43,806 nt of DNA from Nitrospira japonica (GCA_020725385.1 DYFC01000055.1:1-43806), one strand, 5' to 3'; shown: positions 5,237 through 15,933, counted from the first letter of the stretch. A program made the numbers and translations. The notes: generated by a model from the sequence alone, not told the origin.

Positions 5237-5291
5237 ACAATACTATCTGTTTGTTACATTAATGTTACAACTTTGTTAAGTTTATGTTACA
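5237..5291 (-). promoter_or_regulatory. Pho-box array (4 units, 11-bp period) and -10 for pstS
   Basis: + strand TGTTACA 5252, TGTTACA 5263, TGTTAAG 5274, TGTTACA 5285; sense -10 TATTGT 5242-5237. Confidence 0.85.
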
Positions 5292-5529: not shown

Positions 5530-5573
5530 AATATAAGAAAACTTTGTTACAGTAATATTAAAAGGTTGTTAAA
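5530..5573 (-). promoter_or_regulatory. Pho-box array (3 units) and -10
   Basis: + strand TGTTACA 5545, TATTAAA 5556, TGTTAAA 5567; sense -10 TATATT 5535-5530. Confidence 0.7.
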
Positions 5574-5591
5574 TTAAGAAGAAAAATTATT

Positions 5592-5777
5592 TTAACATTG
5601 CGTTGTTAAAACCATTCTATCAATTTCGGTTTTATTAATCCTCAGATTATAAAAAGGGCATTTTTTATAACTGGCTTTTTTACAGTATTCTTTTAACTGA
5701 AATTTGCTTGGACAATACATCTTTTCCTGTGCTTTACACATAAAATTGATGAGTTTAATTAGATGCGGGCATTTCAT
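5592..5777 (-). CDS. Small Cys4 (putative Zn/Fe-binding) hypothetical protein A, 61 aa
   Basis: C3-x10-C14-x17-C32-x7-C40-P; GAGG SD; ATGA overlap with upstream gene; paralog at 7335..7535. Confidence 0.75.
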   Translation of the reverse strand: MKCPHLIKLINFMCKAQEKMYCPSKFQLKEYCKKASYKKCPFYNLRINKTEIDRMVLTTQC

Positions 5778-6166: not shown

Positions 6167-6192
6167 AAAAGCAAAGAGCTAAGAGCATAGAG
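6167..6192 (+). repeat. 26-bp direct repeat, copy 1 (heptamer-based)
   Basis: AAAAGCAAAGAGCTAAGAGCATAGAG, identical at 6859-6884. Confidence 0.9.
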
Positions 6193-6780: not shown

Positions 6781-6824
6781 AGTAGCAAAATTTTAATATT
6801 CCTGTAACATTCCTGTGTTATCTT
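6781..6824 (+). promoter_or_regulatory. Pho-box array (2-3 units) and -10 for arsC
   Basis: AGTAGCA 6781, TTTAATA 6792, TGTAACA 6803; TATCTT 6819-6824, 9 nt after the last unit. Confidence 0.6.
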
Positions 6825-6858: not shown

Positions 6859-6884
6859 AAAAGCAAAGAGCTAAGAGCATAGAG
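6859..6884 (+). repeat. 26-bp direct repeat, copy 2
   Basis: Identical to 6167-6192, preceded by an extra AAGAGCT unit. Confidence 0.9.
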
Positions 6885-6925: not shown

Positions 6926-7333
6926 ATGAAAGTAATGTTTCTTTGTACAGGCAATTCCTGCCGTTCTCAAATGGCAGAAGGATTTGCAAGAGAGCTTGGT
7001 AAAGATAAAATTATTGCTTATAGCGCAGGACTAAATCCTCAGGGGGTCAATCCAAGAGCAGTTGCTGTGATGAAAGAAGCCGGCATTGACATATCTTCAC
7101 AGCAGTCTAAATCTATTGACCCAGAATTATTGAAACAGATGGATATCATAATTACTCTTTGTGATAACGCCGCAGAATCATGCCCTCTTACACCACCAGG
7201 AATAAAAAGAATTCACTGGTCATTGAAAGACCCGGCAAAAGCAGAAGGTACAGAAGAAGAAATCCTGAATGAATTCAGAAAAATTAGAGATGAGATAAAA
7301 TCAAGGATACTTGAGTTGCTTGAAACCGTATAA
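6926..7333 (+). CDS. arsC: Thioredoxin-dependent arsenate reductase (LMW-PTP fold)
   Basis: CTGNSCRSQMAEG P-loop, TLCDNAAESCP, HWSLKDPA; SD AGGAGG. Confidence 0.92.
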   Translation: MKVMFLCTGNSCRSQMAEGFARELGKDKIIAYSAGLNPQGVNPRAVAVMKEAGIDISSQQSKSIDPELLKQMDIIITLCDNAAESCPLTPPGIKRIHWSLKDPAKAEGTEEEILNEFRKIRDEIKSRILELLETV

Positions 7334-7334
7334 A

Positions 7335-7535
7335 TTAAAACTTTTTTCTTAATATCTTTGCAAGGAATATCGGACATTCATCATAGTTATCGGTATTGCA
7401 GCATATTTCTTCTTTTTGCGAATCAAGCACCATTGATGATAAGGATGCTATACAAACGCTGAATTCGTTGTAAGGGCAGGATATGCTATTCATTATGGTT
7501 TCTGGATTTTTCTGACTGATTGTTTCTATGTTCAT
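7335..7535 (-). CDS. Small Cys4 hypothetical protein B, 66 aa
   Basis: C20-x7-C28-x17-C46-x7-C54-P; SD GAGGTG favours ATG 7535 over 7610; paralog of 5592..5777. Confidence 0.75.
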   Translation of the reverse strand: MNIETISQKNPETIMNSISCPYNEFSVCIASLSSMVLDSQKEEICCNTDNYDECPIFLAKILRKKF

Positions 7536-7552
7536 AATCACCTCTTTATAGA

Positions 7553-7596
7553 AAGATAACAAATAAATATTACACGATGATGAAAACCATATTAAA
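7553..7596 (-). promoter_or_regulatory. Pho-box array (3 units) and -10
   Basis: + strand TATTACA 7568, GATGAAA 7579, TATTAAA 7590; sense -10 TATCTT 7558-7553. Confidence 0.65.
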
Positions 7597-7602
7597 TTTA
7601 TA

Positions 7603-8820
7603 TCAAGCAAACCTCGTTTTGATTGTATTTACAAATCTGTACGTATAGTAAAATATTCCTTTTTCAGGGCATGGTATTAGCTGTGAATCGTTCATTATGA
7701 TATATCTATTCCCTCTCCATAAAACTTTATTGCTTAATAAAGGGATAAACCAGGTTAAGCCAATAAGAACATCTTTAATAGGCGCAAGAAGAAAAAGAAA
7801 CATGTTCATATCTGTTTTTATTGTCCTTCCTATATGTATGTCACCAATTACTTTAAGCGTACATACAAATAATGCAAAGCTAATTGTAATTAAAGAAGGG
7901 CTAAAAATCACAGGGAATATTGATAAAAATACTGAATTGCTCAACAACTCTGACAAATATTTTATACCTCCAATATGCCATCTCAGCTTTCCCCATCTGG
8001 TATGCCTGTTAAGAAACTGTCTTAACCCCCAATAGTTGTTTACATTCTTTATAATATGATTTGACAAAACAACTTTTTTACCTAAATTGTAAATTTTCTT
8101 TCCTAATATATAATCTTCAGCAAGCATGTCTTTGACTGATTCAAGACCACCGATAGCTTCTATATCCTTCTTCTTCATTAACATTGATTTGCCCACAACA
8201 CAAGGCATTTTCAGGAATCTATCAAGAAAACACACACTTCCTATCACAAAAGAATTTAAATGCAGATTCTCAAAAATAGAACCTAATGTATATCCTCCCG
8301 TGCCTTTTATAAGATTAGTTACAAGACCGGTTCCGGGATCATCAAATGGTCTGATTATTTCCCTAAGATAATTTTTTGATACCATAACATTGCTGTCGCT
8401 TATAAGAATATAATCATATTTTGCAATTCTATATGCAGGTATCAGATTATTTACTTTGGGATTTAACCCGGCGCAGCACTTTTCTACAAGCAAAGTTATT
8501 TTCTTTTCCGGATATTTTTCTTTTATTTTTTCTGCAACTTTGAAAGCCGGGTCATTATAATCCTGCAATGAAAATATTATTTCATATTCCGGATAATCCT
8601 GGTTACACATACTCTCTAAATTATCAAATAGATTGTCATCAAGACCTTTTAATGGTTTTAATACTGATATTCCCGGCAACCTCTCAAAGTTTCCGTCCCG
8701 GCGATTTATTCTTTGTTCAGCGCTGGTTATTAATATCTTTCTTATTGACCAAACCTGTAAAAAATATCCGATAAGACCTAAAACAACTATGAAAAAAATC
8801 ATTATTGTCAATATTCCCAT
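7603..8820 (-). CDS. Ceramide-glucosyltransferase/HpnI-like membrane glycosyltransferase (GT21/GT2-type)
   Basis: N-terminal TM, SVLKPLKG, NPKVNNL, ISDSNV, LAEDY, RHTRW ((Q/R)xxRW), C-terminal VLWRGNRY; SD AGGAG favours ATG 8820. Confidence 0.88.
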   Translation of the reverse strand: MGILTIMIFFIVVLGLIGYFLQVWSIRKILITSAEQRINRRDGNFERLPGISVLKPLKGLDDNLFDNLESMCNQDYPEYEIIFSLQDYNDPAFKVAEKIKEKYPEKKITLLVEKCCAGLNPKVNNLIPAYRIAKYDYILISDSNVMVSKNYLREIIRPFDDPGTGLVTNLIKGTGGYTLGSIFENLHLNSFVIGSVCFLDRFLKMPCVVGKSMLMKKKDIEAIGGLESVKDMLAEDYILGKKIYNLGKKVVLSNHIIKNVNNYWGLRQFLNRHTRWGKLRWHIGGIKYLSELLSNSVFLSIFPVIFSPSLITISFALFVCTLKVIGDIHIGRTIKTDMNMFLFLLAPIKDVLIGLTWFIPLLSNKVLWRGNRYIIMNDSQLIPCPEKGIFYYTYRFVNTIKTRFA

Positions 8821-8831
8821 ATTCTCTCCTT

Positions 8832-9524
8832 TCAATTTCTAAAAAGCGTAATTGCAACGCCTCTGTTATTTCTTATGCACTGCTTTACAGATTCGGTGTT
8901 CTTTTCGCAATCAAGAAGTGTCTTCCATGAATAAATATGACGTGCTCTATGAAAATCACTGTTTGCAATATAGGGATATTTTTTGAGACTTATAACATTA
9001 AAGACATCGTCTCTATTAGCTATCTCCCATGCATCAATGTATCTCGCATATTTTTCTCTGTTGTTCCATAAAAAAAGTGTGTCTCTATTAGTCATATCCG
9101 ATGTATGATGGGGATGACATGCAATTATTAGCGCATCCTGTTCTTTGGCTTCAAGAAATATTTTCTCGTAATCCCAGCAAGCAGGGATAAACTCTTTTAT
9201 GTCAATAATAAGAATATGCGCTGATTTATCAGGTGAAAGATAATTTTTTGTTATTTCTACCCCGGGAATTATCAACATGCCGTATTTTTCCCATGCTCTT
9301 TCAGCTTCCCGGTTTATTTCTGAAATGTATTTATTAAAATTATCTTTCTTTACCGAAAATTTGAAACGATGAGCGAGTTTTCCGAAAGTATTATCACCAT
9401 TAACTACATGGTCAGTGATTGAGATTACATCAAATCCAGCCTGCCCGAAAAGGTCAACAGTTCTGCGAAGTTCAACAGAACCATCAGAATATTTGGTGTG
9501 AATATGAAAATCACACAATAACAT
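8832..9524 (-). CDS. PHP-domain phosphoesterase
   Basis: DFHIHTKYSDG, ITDH, PGVE, AHIL, CHPH, NSDFH. Confidence 0.9.
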   Translation of the reverse strand: MLLCDFHIHTKYSDGSVELRRTVDLFGQAGFDVISITDHVVNGDNTFGKLAHRFKFSVKKDNFNKYISEINREAERAWEKYGMLIIPGVEITKNYLSPDKSAHILIIDIKEFIPACWDYEKIFLEAKEQDALIIACHPHHTSDMTNRDTLFLWNNREKYARYIDAWEIANRDDVFNVISLKKYPYIANSDFHRARHIYSWKTLLDCEKNTESVKQCIRNNRGVAITLFRN

Positions 9525-9531
9525 TAATATG

Positions 9532-9586
9532 ATAATAAGATTTTTAAATTACAACTTGATTAAAGATTCATGAAATTTTTGTTAAA
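9532..9586 (-). promoter_or_regulatory. Pho-box array (4 units) and -10 for the PHP-GT operon
   Basis: + strand AATTACA 9547, GATTAAA 9558, CATGAAA 9569, TGTTAAA 9580; sense -10 TATTAT 9537-9532; ATG 7 nt further on, no SD. Confidence 0.7.
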
Positions 9587-10814
9587 AATTTCTACTTTTA
9601 ATCAGATGGGAATAATATATTGCAGCTTTTGTTGGTTTACGCTCCAATGTATCAAAATTCACTTTATAGAGGCCGAATCTTGCATCGAGACCCTGAAGCC
9701 ATTCATAATTGTCAATAAGTGACCAATAGAAATAACCTCTAAGATCAATACCCTCCCTGATACATTTTTCAACAACATCTATATGGCTTTTCATAAATCT
9801 TATCTTTTTCCTGTCATTTCTTGTAGCAATACCATTTTCAGTAATAATAAGGGGAATACCAAGTTTAGAAGCATATCTTAGCACTTTTTCAAGACCACGC
9901 GGGTGAATTTCCCAACCCATATCTGTAAGCCCGTAACCATCAAGATCTCTGTGCCTAAGTTCCACCCCCATCTTTTTAAGGGGATTGAATCTCAAATGAA
10001 CCCTCGTGTAATAGTTGACCCCGAAAAAATCGAGTTTATCTTTAATAGGCAAAGAAATTTTCATAACTCTCCTGAAAGGAAATTTAAGATGCAGGGTTCC
10101 TGTTAGAAAAGCATCAAGCAGTGAGTGATTGTAGAAATATTTAGCGATTTTTGAAAGCAACCGGTCGGTAGGATTCCATCTTCTCCATGGAGCGAATGCC
10201 GCCATATTGTGGGCAACCCCGACCTTTGCATGAGGGTTATAGACGTGGATTATATCATATACTCTTCCATGACAGGTTAATATGTTCTGCAAAGCTCTAA
10301 CAGCAAGGGAAACATCTTTTATACCCGGAGGCATGCATCCCTCTAAATAGCCACCGAGCAAGAGAACATACGGTTCATTGAAAGTTATCCAATAATTTAC
10401 TCCTTTTATTTTCTTTATAATTCTCCCGGCGAATTCAGTGAATTTATCGACTGATTCATCTTTATGCCATGGAAACTTTTTTATAAACCATAGCGGATGT
10501 GTAAAATGGTGAAGAGTTAAAAATGGCTCTATATTGCTATCCGTTAGAATGTCAATTATCTCTTGATAATGATTTACGACATTTTCATCCCAGATTTTTT
10601 CTTTAGGCTGAATCCTGCTCCATTCAATCGAAAAACGGTAGGCATTGACTCCTAACTCCTTTAATAATTTTAAATCCTTTTTGTAAAGATTATAATGGTC
10701 AGTAACATTAGGGTTGAAATTTAGTATCGAATCCCATTCTGCCCAGTCTGCATAAGGAGATCCTTCAAGTTGAAATGCAGAAGTTGCCACACCCCAAAAA
10801 AATTTATTTTTCAT
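9582..10814 (-). CDS. Glycoside hydrolase family 1 (beta-glycosidase)
   Basis: FFWGVATSAFQLEG, YRFSIEWSRI, TFNEP (acid/base), ITENG (nucleophile), WSLIDNYEW; no signal peptide. Confidence 0.95.
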   Translation of the reverse strand: MKNKFFWGVATSAFQLEGSPYADWAEWDSILNFNPNVTDHYNLYKKDLKLLKELGVNAYRFSIEWSRIQPKEKIWDENVVNHYQEIIDILTDSNIEPFLTLHHFTHPLWFIKKFPWHKDESVDKFTEFAGRIIKKIKGVNYWITFNEPYVLLLGGYLEGCMPPGIKDVSLAVRALQNILTCHGRVYDIIHVYNPHAKVGVAHNMAAFAPWRRWNPTDRLLSKIAKYFYNHSLLDAFLTGTLHLKFPFRRVMKISLPIKDKLDFFGVNYYTRVHLRFNPLKKMGVELRHRDLDGYGLTDMGWEIHPRGLEKVLRYASKLGIPLIITENGIATRNDRKKIRFMKSHIDVVEKCIREGIDLRGYFYWSLIDNYEWLQGLDARFGLYKVNFDTLERKPTKAAIYYSHLIKSRNF

Positions 10815-10875: not shown

Positions 10876-10903
10876 AGAAAAGCCCTCCCGAATAGGGAGG
10901 GCT
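10876..10903 (-). terminator. Intrinsic terminator after the porin gene
   Basis: AGCCCTCCC/GGGAGGGCT 9-bp stem followed by TTTCTTTC on the minus strand. Confidence 0.8.
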
Positions 10904-10931: not shown

Positions 10932-12071
10932 TTATAAAGCAACCTGCAGTGTGAGCTGTATTCTTTTGTCATCCTTTTTGCTGGAATCTTCATATTTCAC
11001 AGTGTCGTAATCAAGGATGATCATATTCTTGTGAGGCTTGTCAAGATGATATGCTGCTCCTATGATATACCTTGTATTTTCATTATCATCAAGATCGGTA
11101 TTCGGGTCAAACTTATCGTATCTTCCAAATATCGAAAATTGTTTCATGGGTTTTACTTCTGCAAATAATGAATAACCATCTTTCTTAAATTCATCATCAC
11201 CATTCTGATTTCCTTTTCCTTTGTAGTACTGAGCTGTAGCAGTTATGTACTGATGCTCATAGCTCAGCATACCAAGATTGACATTCCAATCAGGGTCTGT
11301 ATCCTTGTTACCTTTTCCTGTTATTCCGAAGTAGGAAACCTGTAAACCGGGCACAATATCAGGAAGCGGTCTTATTGTAATTCTGCCTTCTAATGCCTTG
11401 TTGTCATTTTTCTCTGCTGCGTGATAACCACCACCGTTATATATACCGAAGGACACACTACCATATCTTCCGGGATAATAGCTATTTACACTTTTCTTAT
11501 AATCATCATTCATTTCCCCGCCGAGCAGAGATACAAAAGTAAGACCAAAATCAGCTGAATTAAATGTTTTATTTCTTTCGATGAACATCGTATCCTGTGC
11601 ACGATAGAAGTTCACATGCTCTTCAAAATCAAGCCATGGCATGTGAACAACACCTGCTTCTATAAAAGGTTTTGTTAAGAATGCGAAATCAGGAAGTTTG
11701 AATTTACCATAAGCATATTTAATTCTTACCTGAATTGAATCCGAAAGCTTGCTATCTTTGATCGATGCTTGTGTTGTATCAAAAGTAATATGAGCATCGA
11801 ACCACGGCATTAGTTCTTTTGTTATTCTTACATAACCTCTCTTGATTGCAAATTTGTTCCTATCAATTCCATCACCAGCCGAACCGCCTACATCCGAGCC
11901 CTCACCACTCATGTAGGAAAGATACCATAGCAAACCAAATTTCAGGTCCTTTAAAGATTTCACAACTTTCTCAATATCCTTTTGGGATATTTCCTCTTCA
12001 GCAGCTAATGCTGAACCTGTTACTGTGAGCATTAAACATAGACTCACTAACAAAATAACTACTTTCTTCAT
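10932..12071 (-). CDS. Outer-membrane porin, probably phosphate-selective (OprO/OprP-like)
   Basis: Signal peptide, FAIKRGYVRI, RIKYAY, amphipathic beta-strands, GRYDKFDP; Pho-box promoter. Confidence 0.75.
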   Translation of the reverse strand: MKKVVILLVSLCLMLTVTGSALAAEEEISQKDIEKVVKSLKDLKFGLLWYLSYMSGEGSDVGGSAGDGIDRNKFAIKRGYVRITKELMPWFDAHITFDTTQASIKDSKLSDSIQVRIKYAYGKFKLPDFAFLTKPFIEAGVVHMPWLDFEEHVNFYRAQDTMFIERNKTFNSADFGLTFVSLLGGEMNDDYKKSVNSYYPGRYGSVSFGIYNGGGYHAAEKNDNKALEGRITIRPLPDIVPGLQVSYFGITGKGNKDTDPDWNVNLGMLSYEHQYITATAQYYKGKGNQNGDDEFKKDGYSLFAEVKPMKQFSIFGRYDKFDPNTDLDDNENTRYIIGAAYHLDKPHKNMIILDYDTVKYEDSSKKDDKRIQLTLQVAL

Positions 12072-12172: not shown

Positions 12173-12227
12173 AATTTAATATTTGAATGTTACATGGATA
12201 TTACAATTCCGTTAACTTTCAATTAAT
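12173..12227 (-). promoter_or_regulatory. Pho-box array (3-4 units) and -10 for the porin
   Basis: + strand TGTTACA 12188, TATTACA 12199, CGTTAAC 12210, AATTAAT 12221; sense -10 TAAATT 12178-12173. Confidence 0.8.
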
Positions 12228-12460
12228 TTTAAATGGCAAAATACAGTTGTACGGGATAACAAATAAAAAGCAAAGAACAGAGAGCAAAATAAAGAGTGGA
12301 AAAGGAACTAAGTTGCCAAAATTCCAGGTAACAGAGGATGTAAGGGGTAAAGCGTGAGATGTGAAAACGTAAAATTATTCAATGTGTTACATTCAAATTT
12401 ATATGTCCTGTCTAATTGAGATATTAACAGGTTATTGAGGTCAATAAATCAATATAAATA

Positions 12461-14233
12461 TTACTCAGACGGAGCAATTATATGCACGGCTGTTCCAACA
12501 CCTTCTGTGCTTTCAATAAACATTTCCCAGCCATGCGCTCTAACAAGATGTTTTACTATTGCGAGGCCAAGACCTGTTCCACCAAGTTCCCTCGAGCGAG
12601 CTTTATCGACTCTGTAAAATCTTTCCCCTAAACGTGGCAAATACTTACCGGGTATTCCGGTTCCTGTATCTTCTACAACAATATCAATGCAATCTTTTTC
12701 TTCATCTTGAATTTTGAATCTTGAATTTTGAATCTTTATTTTAATCCCACCGTTGTTTGTAAATTTAATCCCGTTGTCAACGAGATTCATAAGTATCTGT
12801 ATGAGCCTGTCTCTATCTGCTTTGATATACTTAATACCGGATGGCAGTTCTTTATTTAAATAAAGCTTTTTGGAACCGGCTTTTTCAGAAAGAGTCTTAA
12901 TCACCAAATCTATTGCTTCTTCGAGATTAACATCTGTCTTTTTAATAGTGACATCTCCAAGTTCGATGCCGGATAGAGTCAAAAGATCATTAACAAGACA
13001 ATTCAATCTTTCACTATTTGCCTTGATTGTCTGAAGAAATTTTCTTGCATTTTCTCTATCATCAATTGCTCCATCAAGCAAGGTTTCGGCAAATCCTTTT
13101 ATGGCTGTAATAGGTGTTTTTATCTCATGTGATACATTAGCAACAAAATCTTTTCTAACTTCTTCGAGCTTTTTAAGTCTTGTAATATCGTGAAAAGTTA
13201 AAACAACTCCTGACAGTTTTCCGGAATTTTCAAATGAATGAAATGGAGAAGCTGTAACAACTATAAAAAGTTCTTTTGGGCTCGAAATTGTAAGCTCTTT
13301 TGATATTCTGTCATTTTTCTCCGCTACCATATCAATCATTTCCATTAGTTCAGGCTTACGAAGTGCTTCAAGAAGAGTTTTACCTTCAATACCGGAATTA
13401 ATTCCGAATATCTCTTTAACTGAATTATTATGCATTATTATTTTCCCTCTCAAATCTGCAAGCACAAGTCCATCGGATAAATTATAGATAATTGCCTCAA
13501 CCTTCTTTTTTTCGTCTTCGCTCTGTTTCAGCCTCTTTTGAAGTTCCTCAGCCATTTTACTTATATTCATTCCGAGTTGTCCGAGTTCATCTTTTTCGTT
13601 TAAAAAAAGCCTTCTTTTAAAATTACCTTCAGCCACATCTTTTGAAAAATCCGCAATTTCTTCTATGGTCCTTGTAACTTTTCTGGTCTGAATTATACCT
13701 ATCATGAGCGCTACAAAGGAAAATAGAATAGCCACAGAAATTATTCTAAATCTTATCTTATTGACAGATTTTGTTATCTCATTTAATGGCATAGAAAGCC
13801 TGAGAAATTTTTTATGTTCATCATTCATTGATATTGCAAGATAAAATTGATCGTGCTTTAAGGTACTGCTGAATCTTATCGAACTGCCGGCTCCACTTAT
13901 GAATGCATCTCTTATTTCAGGCCTGTTCAAATGATTTTCCATATGTTCGGATGGCTCATCAGAATCTCCTATTACTCTGCCATCATGATCAATTATTGTT
14001 ACTCTTGCACCTGTAATATTTTTGTAATGCTTGCAAAAATCATCGAGATTCCCTGAAAAAGACAACGGAATTTTTTCCTGTATAATTTTGGCATTCACAA
14101 GAAGATTTTCTCTAAGACTGTTGACATAGGTTTCTTTGATTTGCTTTGAAAGATACAATTCAAGTGAAATCAATAAAACAGGCGTGAGAATCAAATATAT
14201 AAAAAGAATTCTTCTAAAAAGTGAATGTTTCAT
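12461..14233 (-). CDS. phoR: Phosphate regulon sensor histidine kinase
   Basis: Two TMs, ENHLNRPE, HAMP, PAS, FVANVSHEIKTP, ERFYRVDKARSR..GGTGLGLAIVKH. Confidence 0.93.
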   Translation of the reverse strand: MKHSLFRRILFIYLILTPVLLISLELYLSKQIKETYVNSLRENLLVNAKIIQEKIPLSFSGNLDDFCKHYKNITGARVTIIDHDGRVIGDSDEPSEHMENHLNRPEIRDAFISGAGSSIRFSSTLKHDQFYLAISMNDEHKKFLRLSMPLNEITKSVNKIRFRIISVAILFSFVALMIGIIQTRKVTRTIEEIADFSKDVAEGNFKRRLFLNEKDELGQLGMNISKMAEELQKRLKQSEDEKKKVEAIIYNLSDGLVLADLRGKIIMHNNSVKEIFGINSGIEGKTLLEALRKPELMEMIDMVAEKNDRISKELTISSPKELFIVVTASPFHSFENSGKLSGVVLTFHDITRLKKLEEVRKDFVANVSHEIKTPITAIKGFAETLLDGAIDDRENARKFLQTIKANSERLNCLVNDLLTLSGIELGDVTIKKTDVNLEEAIDLVIKTLSEKAGSKKLYLNKELPSGIKYIKADRDRLIQILMNLVDNGIKFTNNGGIKIKIQNSRFKIQDEEKDCIDIVVEDTGTGIPGKYLPRLGERFYRVDKARSRELGGTGLGLAIVKHLVRAHGWEMFIESTEGVGTAVHIIAPSE

Positions 14234-14934
14234 TCCTGATTTGCTTCAAAAAAATAACCGATTCCGCGAAGGGTTTTTATATATTTAGGTTTAGCCGGAT
14301 TTTCTTCTATGCTTGAGCGAAGTCGTCTTATATGGACATCAACCGTTCTCGGTTCCACAAATGCTTCACCTCTCCATACTGCATCGAGAAGTTGATCTCT
14401 ACTGAAAACCCTCCCTTTTCTTTCAGCAAGATATAGAAGCAATTTAAACTCAGTAGCACTCAGTTTGACAGGCTTATCATTAACAGTAACAATGTATCTT
14501 TCCCTATCTATTACCAGATTTTCTATTCTTAATATTTTTTCGGGTTCAATTTCTTTAGCAGTTCTTCTAAGAATAGCTTTGATTCTTGCTATTAATTCGC
14601 GCGGGCTGAATGGTTTTGTTATATAATCATCAGCACCCATCTCAAGCCCTAATATCCTGTCCACCTCTTCACCTTTTGCAGTAAGCATAATTATAGGGAT
14701 TTTAGAAGTTTTTTGATCATTTCTTAAAATCTTGCAAAGTTCAATTCCTTGTATCCCCGGGAGCATTAAATCAAGAATAATTAAATCAAATGTATGTTTT
14801 CTGATAGTCGCAAGAGCTGTTTCTCCATCTGAAGCTGTATCAGTAATAAAACCTTCTTTTTTCAAATTATAAGTAATGAGTTCTCTTATATCGCTTTCAT
14901 CATCAACAACGAGTATGTGTTTTGTGTTTGCCAT
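14230..14934 (-). CDS. phoB: OmpR-family phosphate regulon response regulator (PhoB/PhoP)
   Basis: VVDDE, LDLMLP, GADDYITKPF, RTVDVHIRRLR; coupled to phoR. Confidence 0.92.
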   Translation of the reverse strand: MANTKHILVVDDESDIRELITYNLKKEGFITDTASDGETALATIRKHTFDLIILDLMLPGIQGIELCKILRNDQKTSKIPIIMLTAKGEEVDRILGLEMGADDYITKPFSPRELIARIKAILRRTAKEIEPEKILRIENLVIDRERYIVTVNDKPVKLSATEFKLLLYLAERKGRVFSRDQLLDAVWRGEAFVEPRTVDVHIRRLRSSIEENPAKPKYIKTLRGIGYFFEANQE

Positions 14935-14955
14935 GATTAATTATATCACTATAGA

Positions 14956-15933
<978 letters not shown>

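Follow-up and report, generated by a model that had tools for sequence, protein, structure and literature searches.

The stretch of DNA analysed here (hereafter the window) is an entire 43.8-kb contig of Nitrospira japonica, 43,806 nucleotides in length (GCA_020725385.1, DYFC01000055.1:1-43806), and belongs to a genome of 2.46 Mb that is 96.6% complete. By the names of the closest PHP homologues, the genome falls in Nitrospirota, in the vicinity of Thermodesulfovibrionales. Within its pho locus, on the minus strand and in the same direction, lie three genes for a PHP-domain metal phosphoesterase, a membrane glycosyltransferase (GT) of family GT21 and a beta-glycosidase of family GH1. This PHP-GT-GH1 trio looks like a so far undescribed route from membrane phospholipids to sugar lipids, with forms in three phyla. 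In the reading towards which we lean, PHP is a non-homologous stand-in for PlcP that frees a lipid acceptor, GT21 adds a beta-linked sugar to it and GH1 turns the lipid over.

The closest known system is the lipid renovation by PlcP with Agt or Pgt in Sinorhizobium, Agrobacterium, SAR11 and Pseudomonas. In the consulted parts of the reports, an intracellular phosphoesterase gene under PhoB control stands beside a glycolipid GT gene, and the supposed flow runs from phospholipid through diacylglycerol (DAG) to glycolipid (PMC3972451; PMC8231724). The predicted control and the pairing are alike in our locus, and the genes suggest the same flow. However, PlcP is a calcineurin-like protein (PF00149), whereas the esterase here is built on the PHP fold, which is unrelated and has another metal centre. 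A further difference is that GH1 is a third co-inherited member of the module and that in one phylum the esterase and the transferase are fused.

The gene identities come from Pfam and NCBIfam scans of the open reading frames (ORFs) of the window. The domain calls and the flanking porin, phoR, phoB, galE and pst genes bear out an earlier note on this DNA, which had placed three co-oriented genes in a pho locus. Read 5' to 3' on the minus strand, the order is galE, phoB, phoR, porin, terminator, GH1, PHP, GT21, a Cys-rich ORF, the arsC region and pst (Table 1). The note was also right that galE adjoins phoBR, that a terminator (stem-loop at 10903-10881, minus strand) splits the porin from GH1, that GH1 has no Pho array before it (no upstream match above 8 bits to the matrix described below), and that hpn and ceramide genes are missing from the window; a serine-palmitoyltransferase-like (Spt-like) gene and a reductase gene lie on another contig. 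PHP and GT21 are tightly coupled as it had claimed, but through an 11-nt gap and not a 4-bp overlap. The listed GT21 ORF (7603-8835, minus strand) opens at a TTG at 8835, and the likely start is the ATG at 8820, which is preceded by the Shine-Dalgarno sequence AAGGAGAG.

The four-unit array that the note had seen before the PHP-GT pair (9545-9584, minus strand) has an 11-bp period with the units TTAACA / TTCATG / TTAATC / TGTAAT. We trained a matrix of 40 columns on the PHP-upstream DNA of 29 other genomes, leaving this genome out, and ran it over both strands of the whole 2.46-Mb genome with a threshold of 12 bits. Only 11 matches were found, the best of which lies 5' of pstS (26.5 bits); the PHP array came fifth. 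Seven of the 11 fall in the window, before pstS, arsC, a small ORF, PHP, the porin and orf101, and at 5543-5582. The PHP promoter thus has its 11-bp direct repeats in common with the pst promoter under one matrix (pstS 26.5, PHP 18.3 and porin 17.5 bits). The top match before pstS and the rarity of matches across the genome identify the motif as the predicted Pho box of this organism, and they argue that the PHP array is far beyond chance and no AT-rich accident. All 29 other Nitrospirota loci carry four such 11-bp units in the 160 nt before PHP, approximately TAACA-AAAC-TTAAC-TCC-TTAAT-TCC-TGTAAC. A relative outside the training set (L219) has arrays before its porin, PHP (34 bits, 20 nt from the ATG), pstS and pstC.

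In 20 of the other 29 loci, 20-21 nt separate the end of the array from the PHP start codon. A -10-like hexamer lies about 7 nt from the ATG and a Shine-Dalgarno sequence is absent there, a geometry that implies a leaderless PHP mRNA. Eight loci (L012-L017, L020 and L021) differ by an insert of 49-100 nt that parts the array from the PHP start, and several of these inserts contain repeated words of the ATGTT(A/G) type, such as atcatgttaataacatgttggcaaatatgttggtaaatggttaat. Such an insert might serve as a leader or as a further operator, unlike the leaderless geometry elsewhere.

The three genes are also inherited together. In searches of 301 Nitrospirota genomes with each of the three proteins, tallied by hand, a PHP orthologue was found in 82 genomes (identity 70-82%), and 81 of these had GT21 as well (51-66%). 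GH1 was present in 70 of the 82 (63-78%) but in no more than 5 of the 219 genomes that lack PHP. GT21 lies directly 3' of PHP in all 30 loci inspected, with GT21 frame-broken in L022 and L026 and interrupted by the contig end in L034, and in 12 of these loci a GH1 gene is found at most 1.5 kb away. None of the three genes occurs in G286, a relative of the same genus. Taken together, the array and the co-inheritance support PHP-GT21 as a predicted Pho-regulon unit and GH1 as a member of the same module. One of the five genomes with GH1 but no PHP (G214, C11:77325-78882) carries a truncated GH1 (query residues 4-333) that abuts a GT21 fragment (residues 228-405), without an intervening PHP gene; this locus looks like a deletion remnant of the module.

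The PHP protein (ORF 8832-9524, minus strand) exceeds the gathering cut-off of PF02811 (31.2 against 26.4 bits). Its residues 2-229 align with residues 20-244 of TM0559 of Thermotoga maritima (PDB 2ANU, E 1.4e-66), end to end and within one family. The motif set of HxH, D/H, E, H, H and DxH is complete, and the metal ligands H7, H9, D14, H39, E90, H103, H137, D190 and H192 show no variation across 26 sequences or across a wider set of 22. The protein gave no match to PF00149; it is hence outside the PlcP family, and the likeness to PlcP is claimed for function only. PHP enzymes hydrolyse mono- and diesters, and one of them is described as a dialkyl phosphate diesterase (PMC5460133). At E<=0.001, a library of 1.84 billion representatives clustered at 50% identity contains 968 of the TM0559 family. 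The structure 2ANU was deposited as a 'hypothetical protein', and neither of the two open-access papers found to name TM0559 concerns its function by title or abstract. Searches of open-access PMC and bioRxiv found no description of a PHP enzyme in lipid renovation.

It is conceivable, though very unlikely in our view, that PHP is a soluble phosphoesterase acting on nucleotides or other small molecules, such as the UDP (uridine diphosphate) of the transferase, pAp or oligonucleotides, and that it scavenges phosphate or relieves product inhibition. Nucleotide phosphatases and nucleases are among the PHP enzymes of known activity, NCBIfam gave weak matches to pAp phosphatase, RNase RNM and PolX models, and the source annotations of homologues ('3',5'-nucleoside bisphosphate phosphatase' or 'TrpH') agree with such a role. 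A nucleotide-sugar donor is moreover the one trait common to the GT21, GT28, GT4 and GT2 partners of the family. However, the NCBIfam matches span only the N-terminal HxH motif (residues 2-40) and reach 19-21 bits against cut-offs of 375-426. The hundreds of covalent fusions to lipid GTs and the co-loss of PHP with GT21 (81/82) argue for a dedicated partner role of PHP, and in Acidobacteriota the nearby genes for a lipid kinase and PhoX suggest a role in the turnover of lipids and phosphate.

The transferase is a clear member of Glyco_transf_21 (PF13506, 155.1 bits against a cut-off of 21.7), with hydrophobic segments at residues 8-26, 298-324 and 346-364, that is, one at the N-terminus and two or three at the C-terminus. 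The earlier note had limited this GT type to ceramides and hopanoids, which proved too narrow. GT21 also includes Pgt, a processive enzyme that glycosylates DAG under phosphate starvation in Agrobacterium and Mesorhizobium, while Agt belongs to GT4 (PMC8231724; PMC3972451). Pgt is described as forming beta-linked glycolipids on DAG or ceramide from UDP-Gal, which is preferred, or UDP-Glc, with a predicted Pho box (PMC3972451); the GT21 of the window resembles it in family and Pho box and has galE beside phoBR. A difference is that a PHP or GH1 partner is not reported for Pgt in the consulted part of that paper, and the likeness to Pgt is one of description, not of direct sequence comparison. 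Because Pgt itself is GT21, the transferase is the ordinary part of the module and PHP the new part. The new element is the esterase, which has a PHP fold and takes the place of the calcineurin-like PlcP.

That the transferase is instead a housekeeping enzyme of hopanoids (HpnI) or of envelope polysaccharide or lipopolysaccharide, with an incidental place in the pho locus, is scarcely credible. HpnI is the top NCBIfam model for GT21 (E 1.5e-74), but the score of 251.1 bits is below the TIGR03472 cut-off of 310. The squalene-hopene cyclase model TIGR01507 is unmatched in this 96.6%-complete genome, a comparison with no positive control, as the 14 control genomes also gave nothing above the cut-off. 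GT21 is an accessory gene, present in 81 of 301 genomes and absent from G286, and it always stands behind a Pho array together with PHP. An HpnI identity was therefore rejected on the score and the missing cyclase match.

A variant keeps the module and changes the lipid, and is thus not opposed to our explanation. The backbone would be ceramide, with PHP as a sphingophospholipid phosphodiesterase, GT21 as a glucosylceramide synthase and GH1 as a glucosylceramidase; we regard this as possible but unlikely. The best solved relative of GT21 in the PDB is a ceramide glucosyltransferase (E 7e-45). On another contig (C14:7909-10965), a Spt-like gene (NF047600, 586 bits) overlaps a gene for a reductase of the NAD-epimerase family, a pair that suggests sphingoid-base synthesis, and the Spt-like orthologue occurs in 67 of the 82 PHP-bearing genomes. 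Pgt also accepts ceramide (PMC3972451), and in one field study monoglycosyl ceramides were correlated with amplicon sequence variants of Thermodesulfovibrionia (PMC10667739). However, the other 15 PHP-bearing genomes have no Spt-like orthologue at E<=1e-160, including one that consists of a single contig (G069) and one of 7 contigs (G131), both 98% complete. Relatives that lack PHP carry the gene just as often, it scores below the 640-bit cut-off of its model in all 301 genomes, and the fused partners in other bacteria belong to the DAG-specific UgtP/MGDG-synthase family. The divergent neighbour of the Spt-like pair encodes a protoglobin fused to a PsiE (phosphate-starvation-inducible) domain.

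The GH1 protein scores 299 bits with TIGR03356, the canonical BGL equivalog, below the cut-off of 478.5, and is by its sequence a member of a divergent short subfamily. Its nearest solved structure is 1VFF (E 1.3e-86; 410 against 423 amino acids), which we take to be the membrane-bound P. horikoshii enzyme BGPh, and the catalytic motifs TFNEP (NEP) and ITENG (TENG) align between the two. BGPh is described as membrane-associated with a preference for long-alkyl beta-glucosides, and its relatives cleave steryl glucosides (PMC4687101). In contrast to BGPh, the GH1 of the window is bacterial and is tied to a lipid GT and an operon of predicted Pho control. It has its own promoter region and lacks both a signal peptide and a membrane segment. 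Because neither PHP nor GH1 has a hydrophobic segment and GH1 starts directly at its conserved N-terminus, we regard both as cytoplasmic. Neighbouring GH1 genes occur with the GT21 and GT28 forms of the family but in none of the 80 loci with the GT4 and GT2 forms. GT21 and GT28 are inverting families with beta-linked products in CAZy, and GT4 is retaining. The restriction of GH1 to inverting partners fits a beta-specific enzyme acting on the transferase product, whether by reversal, trimming or transglycosylation.

Outside Nitrospirota, the same PHP family is joined to other transferases. There are 776 longer PHP homologues at E<=1e-20, mostly fused. Among the 120 matches listed of these 776, 115 carry MGDG_synth, GT28_C or GT1-group domains and one is a GT2-PHP fusion (P0369), while two of the remaining four are truncated GT28-PHP. 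Several family members of 550-680 amino acids have the PHP domain behind an MGDG-synthase/GT28-type transferase, and there is a single PHP-GT21 fusion (P0166). The source names place the GT28-type-PHP fusions in Verrucomicrobiota. The N-terminal half of one of them (P0318) is nearest to diglucosyl-DAG synthase (PF06925, PF04101, and NF010135 with 166 bits against an equivalog cut-off of 500). The known UgtP/MGDG-synthase enzymes of this GT28 type stand alone, whereas the fusions add a C-terminal PHP domain. A Nitrospirota-type array above 8 bits lies within 160 nt 5' of the fused gene in 14 of the 41 metagenome loci of Verrucomicrobiota with sufficient upstream DNA, compared to 3 matches in 672,709 other positions. 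The fused gene is flanked by phoB or pst genes in six loci (L163, L165, L189, L200, L212 and L216) and adjoined by a short GH1 gene in four (L169, L171, L208 and L210), which may come from one lineage.

In Acidobacteriota, 80 loci were retrieved with an alignment of seven sequences, and every locus was from this phylum. A GT2 gene for 245 amino acids lies directly 5' of the PHP gene in 78 of them, a lipid-type GT4 gene lies downstream in 9, and a YegS-type lipid kinase gene adjoins in 3. We also found pst genes within 6 kb in 16 loci, and genes for PhoX, polyphosphate kinase and CHAD proteins in sampled loci. Pho-like arrays are visible upstream of the GT2 gene, where the Nitrospirota matrix, which transfers weakly to this phylum, exceeds 5 bits in 11 of 77 loci and 8 bits in 2. 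In 22 of the 80 loci, a near-invariant element of 22 bases with a near-palindrome, ATGCACGTGGGTATACCACGGC (for example L040:1841-1862 and L043:5237-5258), lies 3' of the Pho-like array and the -10 and 60-150 nt 5' of the GT2-PHP genes; a conserved leader, a tiny ORF and an operator are all conceivable. The three partner types (GT21, fused GT28, GT4/GT2) fall in three separate PHP clades in a quick tree with SH-aLRT support, which suggests that each pairing is old within its own lineage.

The Acidobacteriota pairs bear on another order of events, in which the GT glycosylates a phosphorylated acceptor and PHP then strips the phosphate from the product. Two-step pairs of a synthase and a phosphatase are familiar from sucrose-phosphate, trehalose-phosphate and glucosyl-3-phosphoglycerate, and such pairs and fusions are a frequent pattern. 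The GT2 of Acidobacteriota weakly matches glucosyl-3-phosphoglycerate synthase (30-33 bits), and the GT4 is nearest to the model for GlcNAc-phosphatidylglycerol synthase (130-142 bits), a GT acting on a phospholipid. However, all these model scores are far under the cut-offs, and GT21 and UgtP-type enzymes act on the free hydroxyls of DAG or ceramide (PMC3972451). A phosphorylated intermediate alone would spare no phosphorus, yet the genes stand behind Pho arrays in three phyla. We consider this order quite unlikely. The fusions to DAG-type transferases, the lipid-kinase neighbours and the Pho control in three phyla make the supply of a lipid acceptor the best explanation.

From the observed gene identities, array specificity, linkage, co-inheritance and fusions we infer every biochemical step of the module, as follows. 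At low phosphate, PhoB would bind the array at 9545-9584 and activate the promoter, and the transcript would probably begin at the PHP start codon. Soluble PHP would then attack an inner-leaflet phospholipid at a phosphoester bond, acting on a diester as a phospholipase C or on phosphatidate as a phosphatase. This step would free phosphorus for the cell and leave a lipid alcohol, most likely diacyl- or dialkylglycerol, with ceramide possible in this lineage. The co-translated membrane GT21, as a relative of Pgt, would move glucose or galactose from a UDP-sugar to this alcohol, with galE at hand beside phoBR, and the product would be a phosphorus-free beta-glycolipid. Cytoplasmic GH1, from its own promoter, might hydrolyse this glycolipid to the lipid alcohol when phosphate returns, or it might trim or transglycosylate it. 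The phospholipid-to-glycolipid switch of the earlier note is thus upheld in part: the Pho unit, the co-inheritance, the GT fusions and pairs in two more phyla and the lack of a PlcP-like protein by name and context speak for it, while its view of GT21 had to be corrected and HpnI was set aside.

Several observations weigh against lipid-acceptor supply by PHP and turnover by GH1. GH1 is missing from 12 of the 82 PHP-bearing genomes, including all five of one family (f19), and one relative (L016) carries a Pho array before its GH1, which weakens the idea of a differently regulated reversal. Genomes within a phylum are not independent, so that our tallies are counts, not tests, and overstate the number of independent events. 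The TM0559 family includes no enzyme of known substrate, and the annotations of its homologues at source are those for nucleoside bisphosphates and TrpH already mentioned. The certain common trait of the partner transferases is the nucleotide-sugar donor, not a lipid acceptor, and the constant partner in Acidobacteriota is a small generic GT2 without a lipid signature, which keeps both the product-phosphatase and the soluble-ester readings alive. Finally, the absence of PlcP was judged from names and context only: none of the seven Metallophos (PF00149) proteins of this genome (UshA-like, ApaH-like, anti-phage-like, LpxG/YaeI-like, TIGR00282, SbcD-like and YfcE) is named or placed like PlcP, and none adjoins a transferase or a Pho array.

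Table 1. Features of the pho locus in the window, following the minus strand from 5' to 3'.
Feature	Position	Strand	Remarks
galE-phoB-phoR block	12461..15933	-	two-component phosphate regulator and epimerase
galE, UDP-glucose 4-epimerase	14956-15933	-	TIGR01179, 472.6 bits
phoB	14230-14934	-	Response_reg and Trans_reg_C
phoR	12461-14233	-	HisKA, HATPase_c, PAS and HAMP
Porin with signal peptide	10932-12071	-	PF13609, 31 bits; Pho array 5' at 12186-12225, 17.5 bits
Intrinsic terminator, porin/GH1 boundary	10881..10903	-	stem of 9 pairs (7 G-C), loop of 5, T-rich tail TTTCTTTC
GH1 beta-glycosidase, 410 aa	9582..10814	-	PF00232, 291.1 bits
Four-unit Pho array	9545..9584	-	18.3 bits; overlaps the GH1 stop codon
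Spacer between array and PHP	9525..9544	-	-10-like TATTAT/TATCAT; no Shine-Dalgarno
PHP-domain metal phosphoesterase, TM0559 family, 230 aa, soluble	8832..9524	-	PF02811, 31.2 bits
GT21 membrane glycosyltransferase, 405 aa from ATG at 8820	7603..8820	-	PF13506, 155.1 bits
Second Pho array	7566..7605	-	18.4 bits; overlaps the GT21 3' end, 5' of the Cys-rich ORF
Small Cys-rich ORF, 66 aa from ATG at 7535	7335..7535	-	listed ORF is 91 aa from 7610
arsC, thioredoxin-type arsenate reductase	6926-7333	+	divergent; Pho array 6783-6822 (+), 21.7 bits
pstS-pstC-pstA-pstB-phoU	5220-1014	-	Pfam; Pho array at 5250-5289, strongest of the genome, 26.5 bits

Arrays similar to the second one lie 3' of GT21 in two other loci (L011 and L015). 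The start of the Cys-rich ORF at 7535 was inferred from AAAGAGGTG. A Pfam search with this ORF of 66 amino acids gave nothing up to E 1, and in 7 of the other 29 loci a relative lies close to the PHP-GT21 pair. Two small ORFs lie between arsC and pstS. A second small Cys-rich ORF, of 61 amino acids (5592-5777, minus strand), also stands behind a Pho array and overlaps the orf101 stop (ATGA); its one Pfam match was at chance level (E 0.029) and under the cut-off. Kinship of the two Cys-rich ORFs was considered and could not be demonstrated, as BLASTP gave E 0.01 over 22 residues only and no Pfam family is shared. Genes like arsC also occur near PHP in other phyla (L028, L059, L066, L115, L216 and L228). 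With arsC behind a Pho array and recurring near PHP, arsenate defence seems to be tied to the Pho response.

Two further observations concern the Pho arrays of this genome. A 21-base element, TGCTCTTAGCTCTTTGCTTTT, occurs on the minus strand at 6167-6187, 6859-6879 and 12266-12286, in two exact copies and one with 3 mismatches, and the expectation in shuffled sequence is 0 copies. Each copy lies some tens of bases 5' of a Pho array, namely those of orf101, of the divergent arsC/orf115 region and of the porin, and the element may be a second regulatory site. On another contig (C37:64483-66338), a Pho array of 20.1 bits, which ranks third in the genome, stands before the gene for a 553-amino-acid protein whose sole family match is a CehA/McbA metallohydrolase domain of the PHP superfamily. 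By these two features it is a second predicted PHP-type member of the Pho regulon.

For the family as a whole, we see an even chance that the TM0559-type PHP proteins are a widespread new class of intracellular lipid phosphoesterases, phospholipase C or phosphatidate phosphatase, that fill the role of PlcP in Nitrospirota, Verrucomicrobiota and Acidobacteriota. They would be united physically or genetically with the glycolipid synthase of each lineage (GT21, fused GT28, GT4/GT2), and in lineages with a beta-linked product a dedicated membrane-type GH1 would recycle or remodel it. This would give a concrete candidate function to a large orphan family (968 representatives, 776 longer and mostly fused forms, and one solved structure). 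Two smaller points are that a GH1 would be a constant part of a lipid-renovation module, and that the conserved geometry of the predicted Pho-activated promoter leads us to expect a leaderless mRNA. The module could also account genetically for the glycosyl diether and glycosyl ceramide lipids tied to Thermodesulfovibrionia in a field study (PMC10667739). If our reading is true, the phosphate-driven swap of phospholipids for glycolipids would extend to three abundant environmental phyla through an enzyme invisible to PlcP-based surveys, and phosphorus-sparing lipid renovation in soils, sediments and hot springs would be far commoner than these surveys show.

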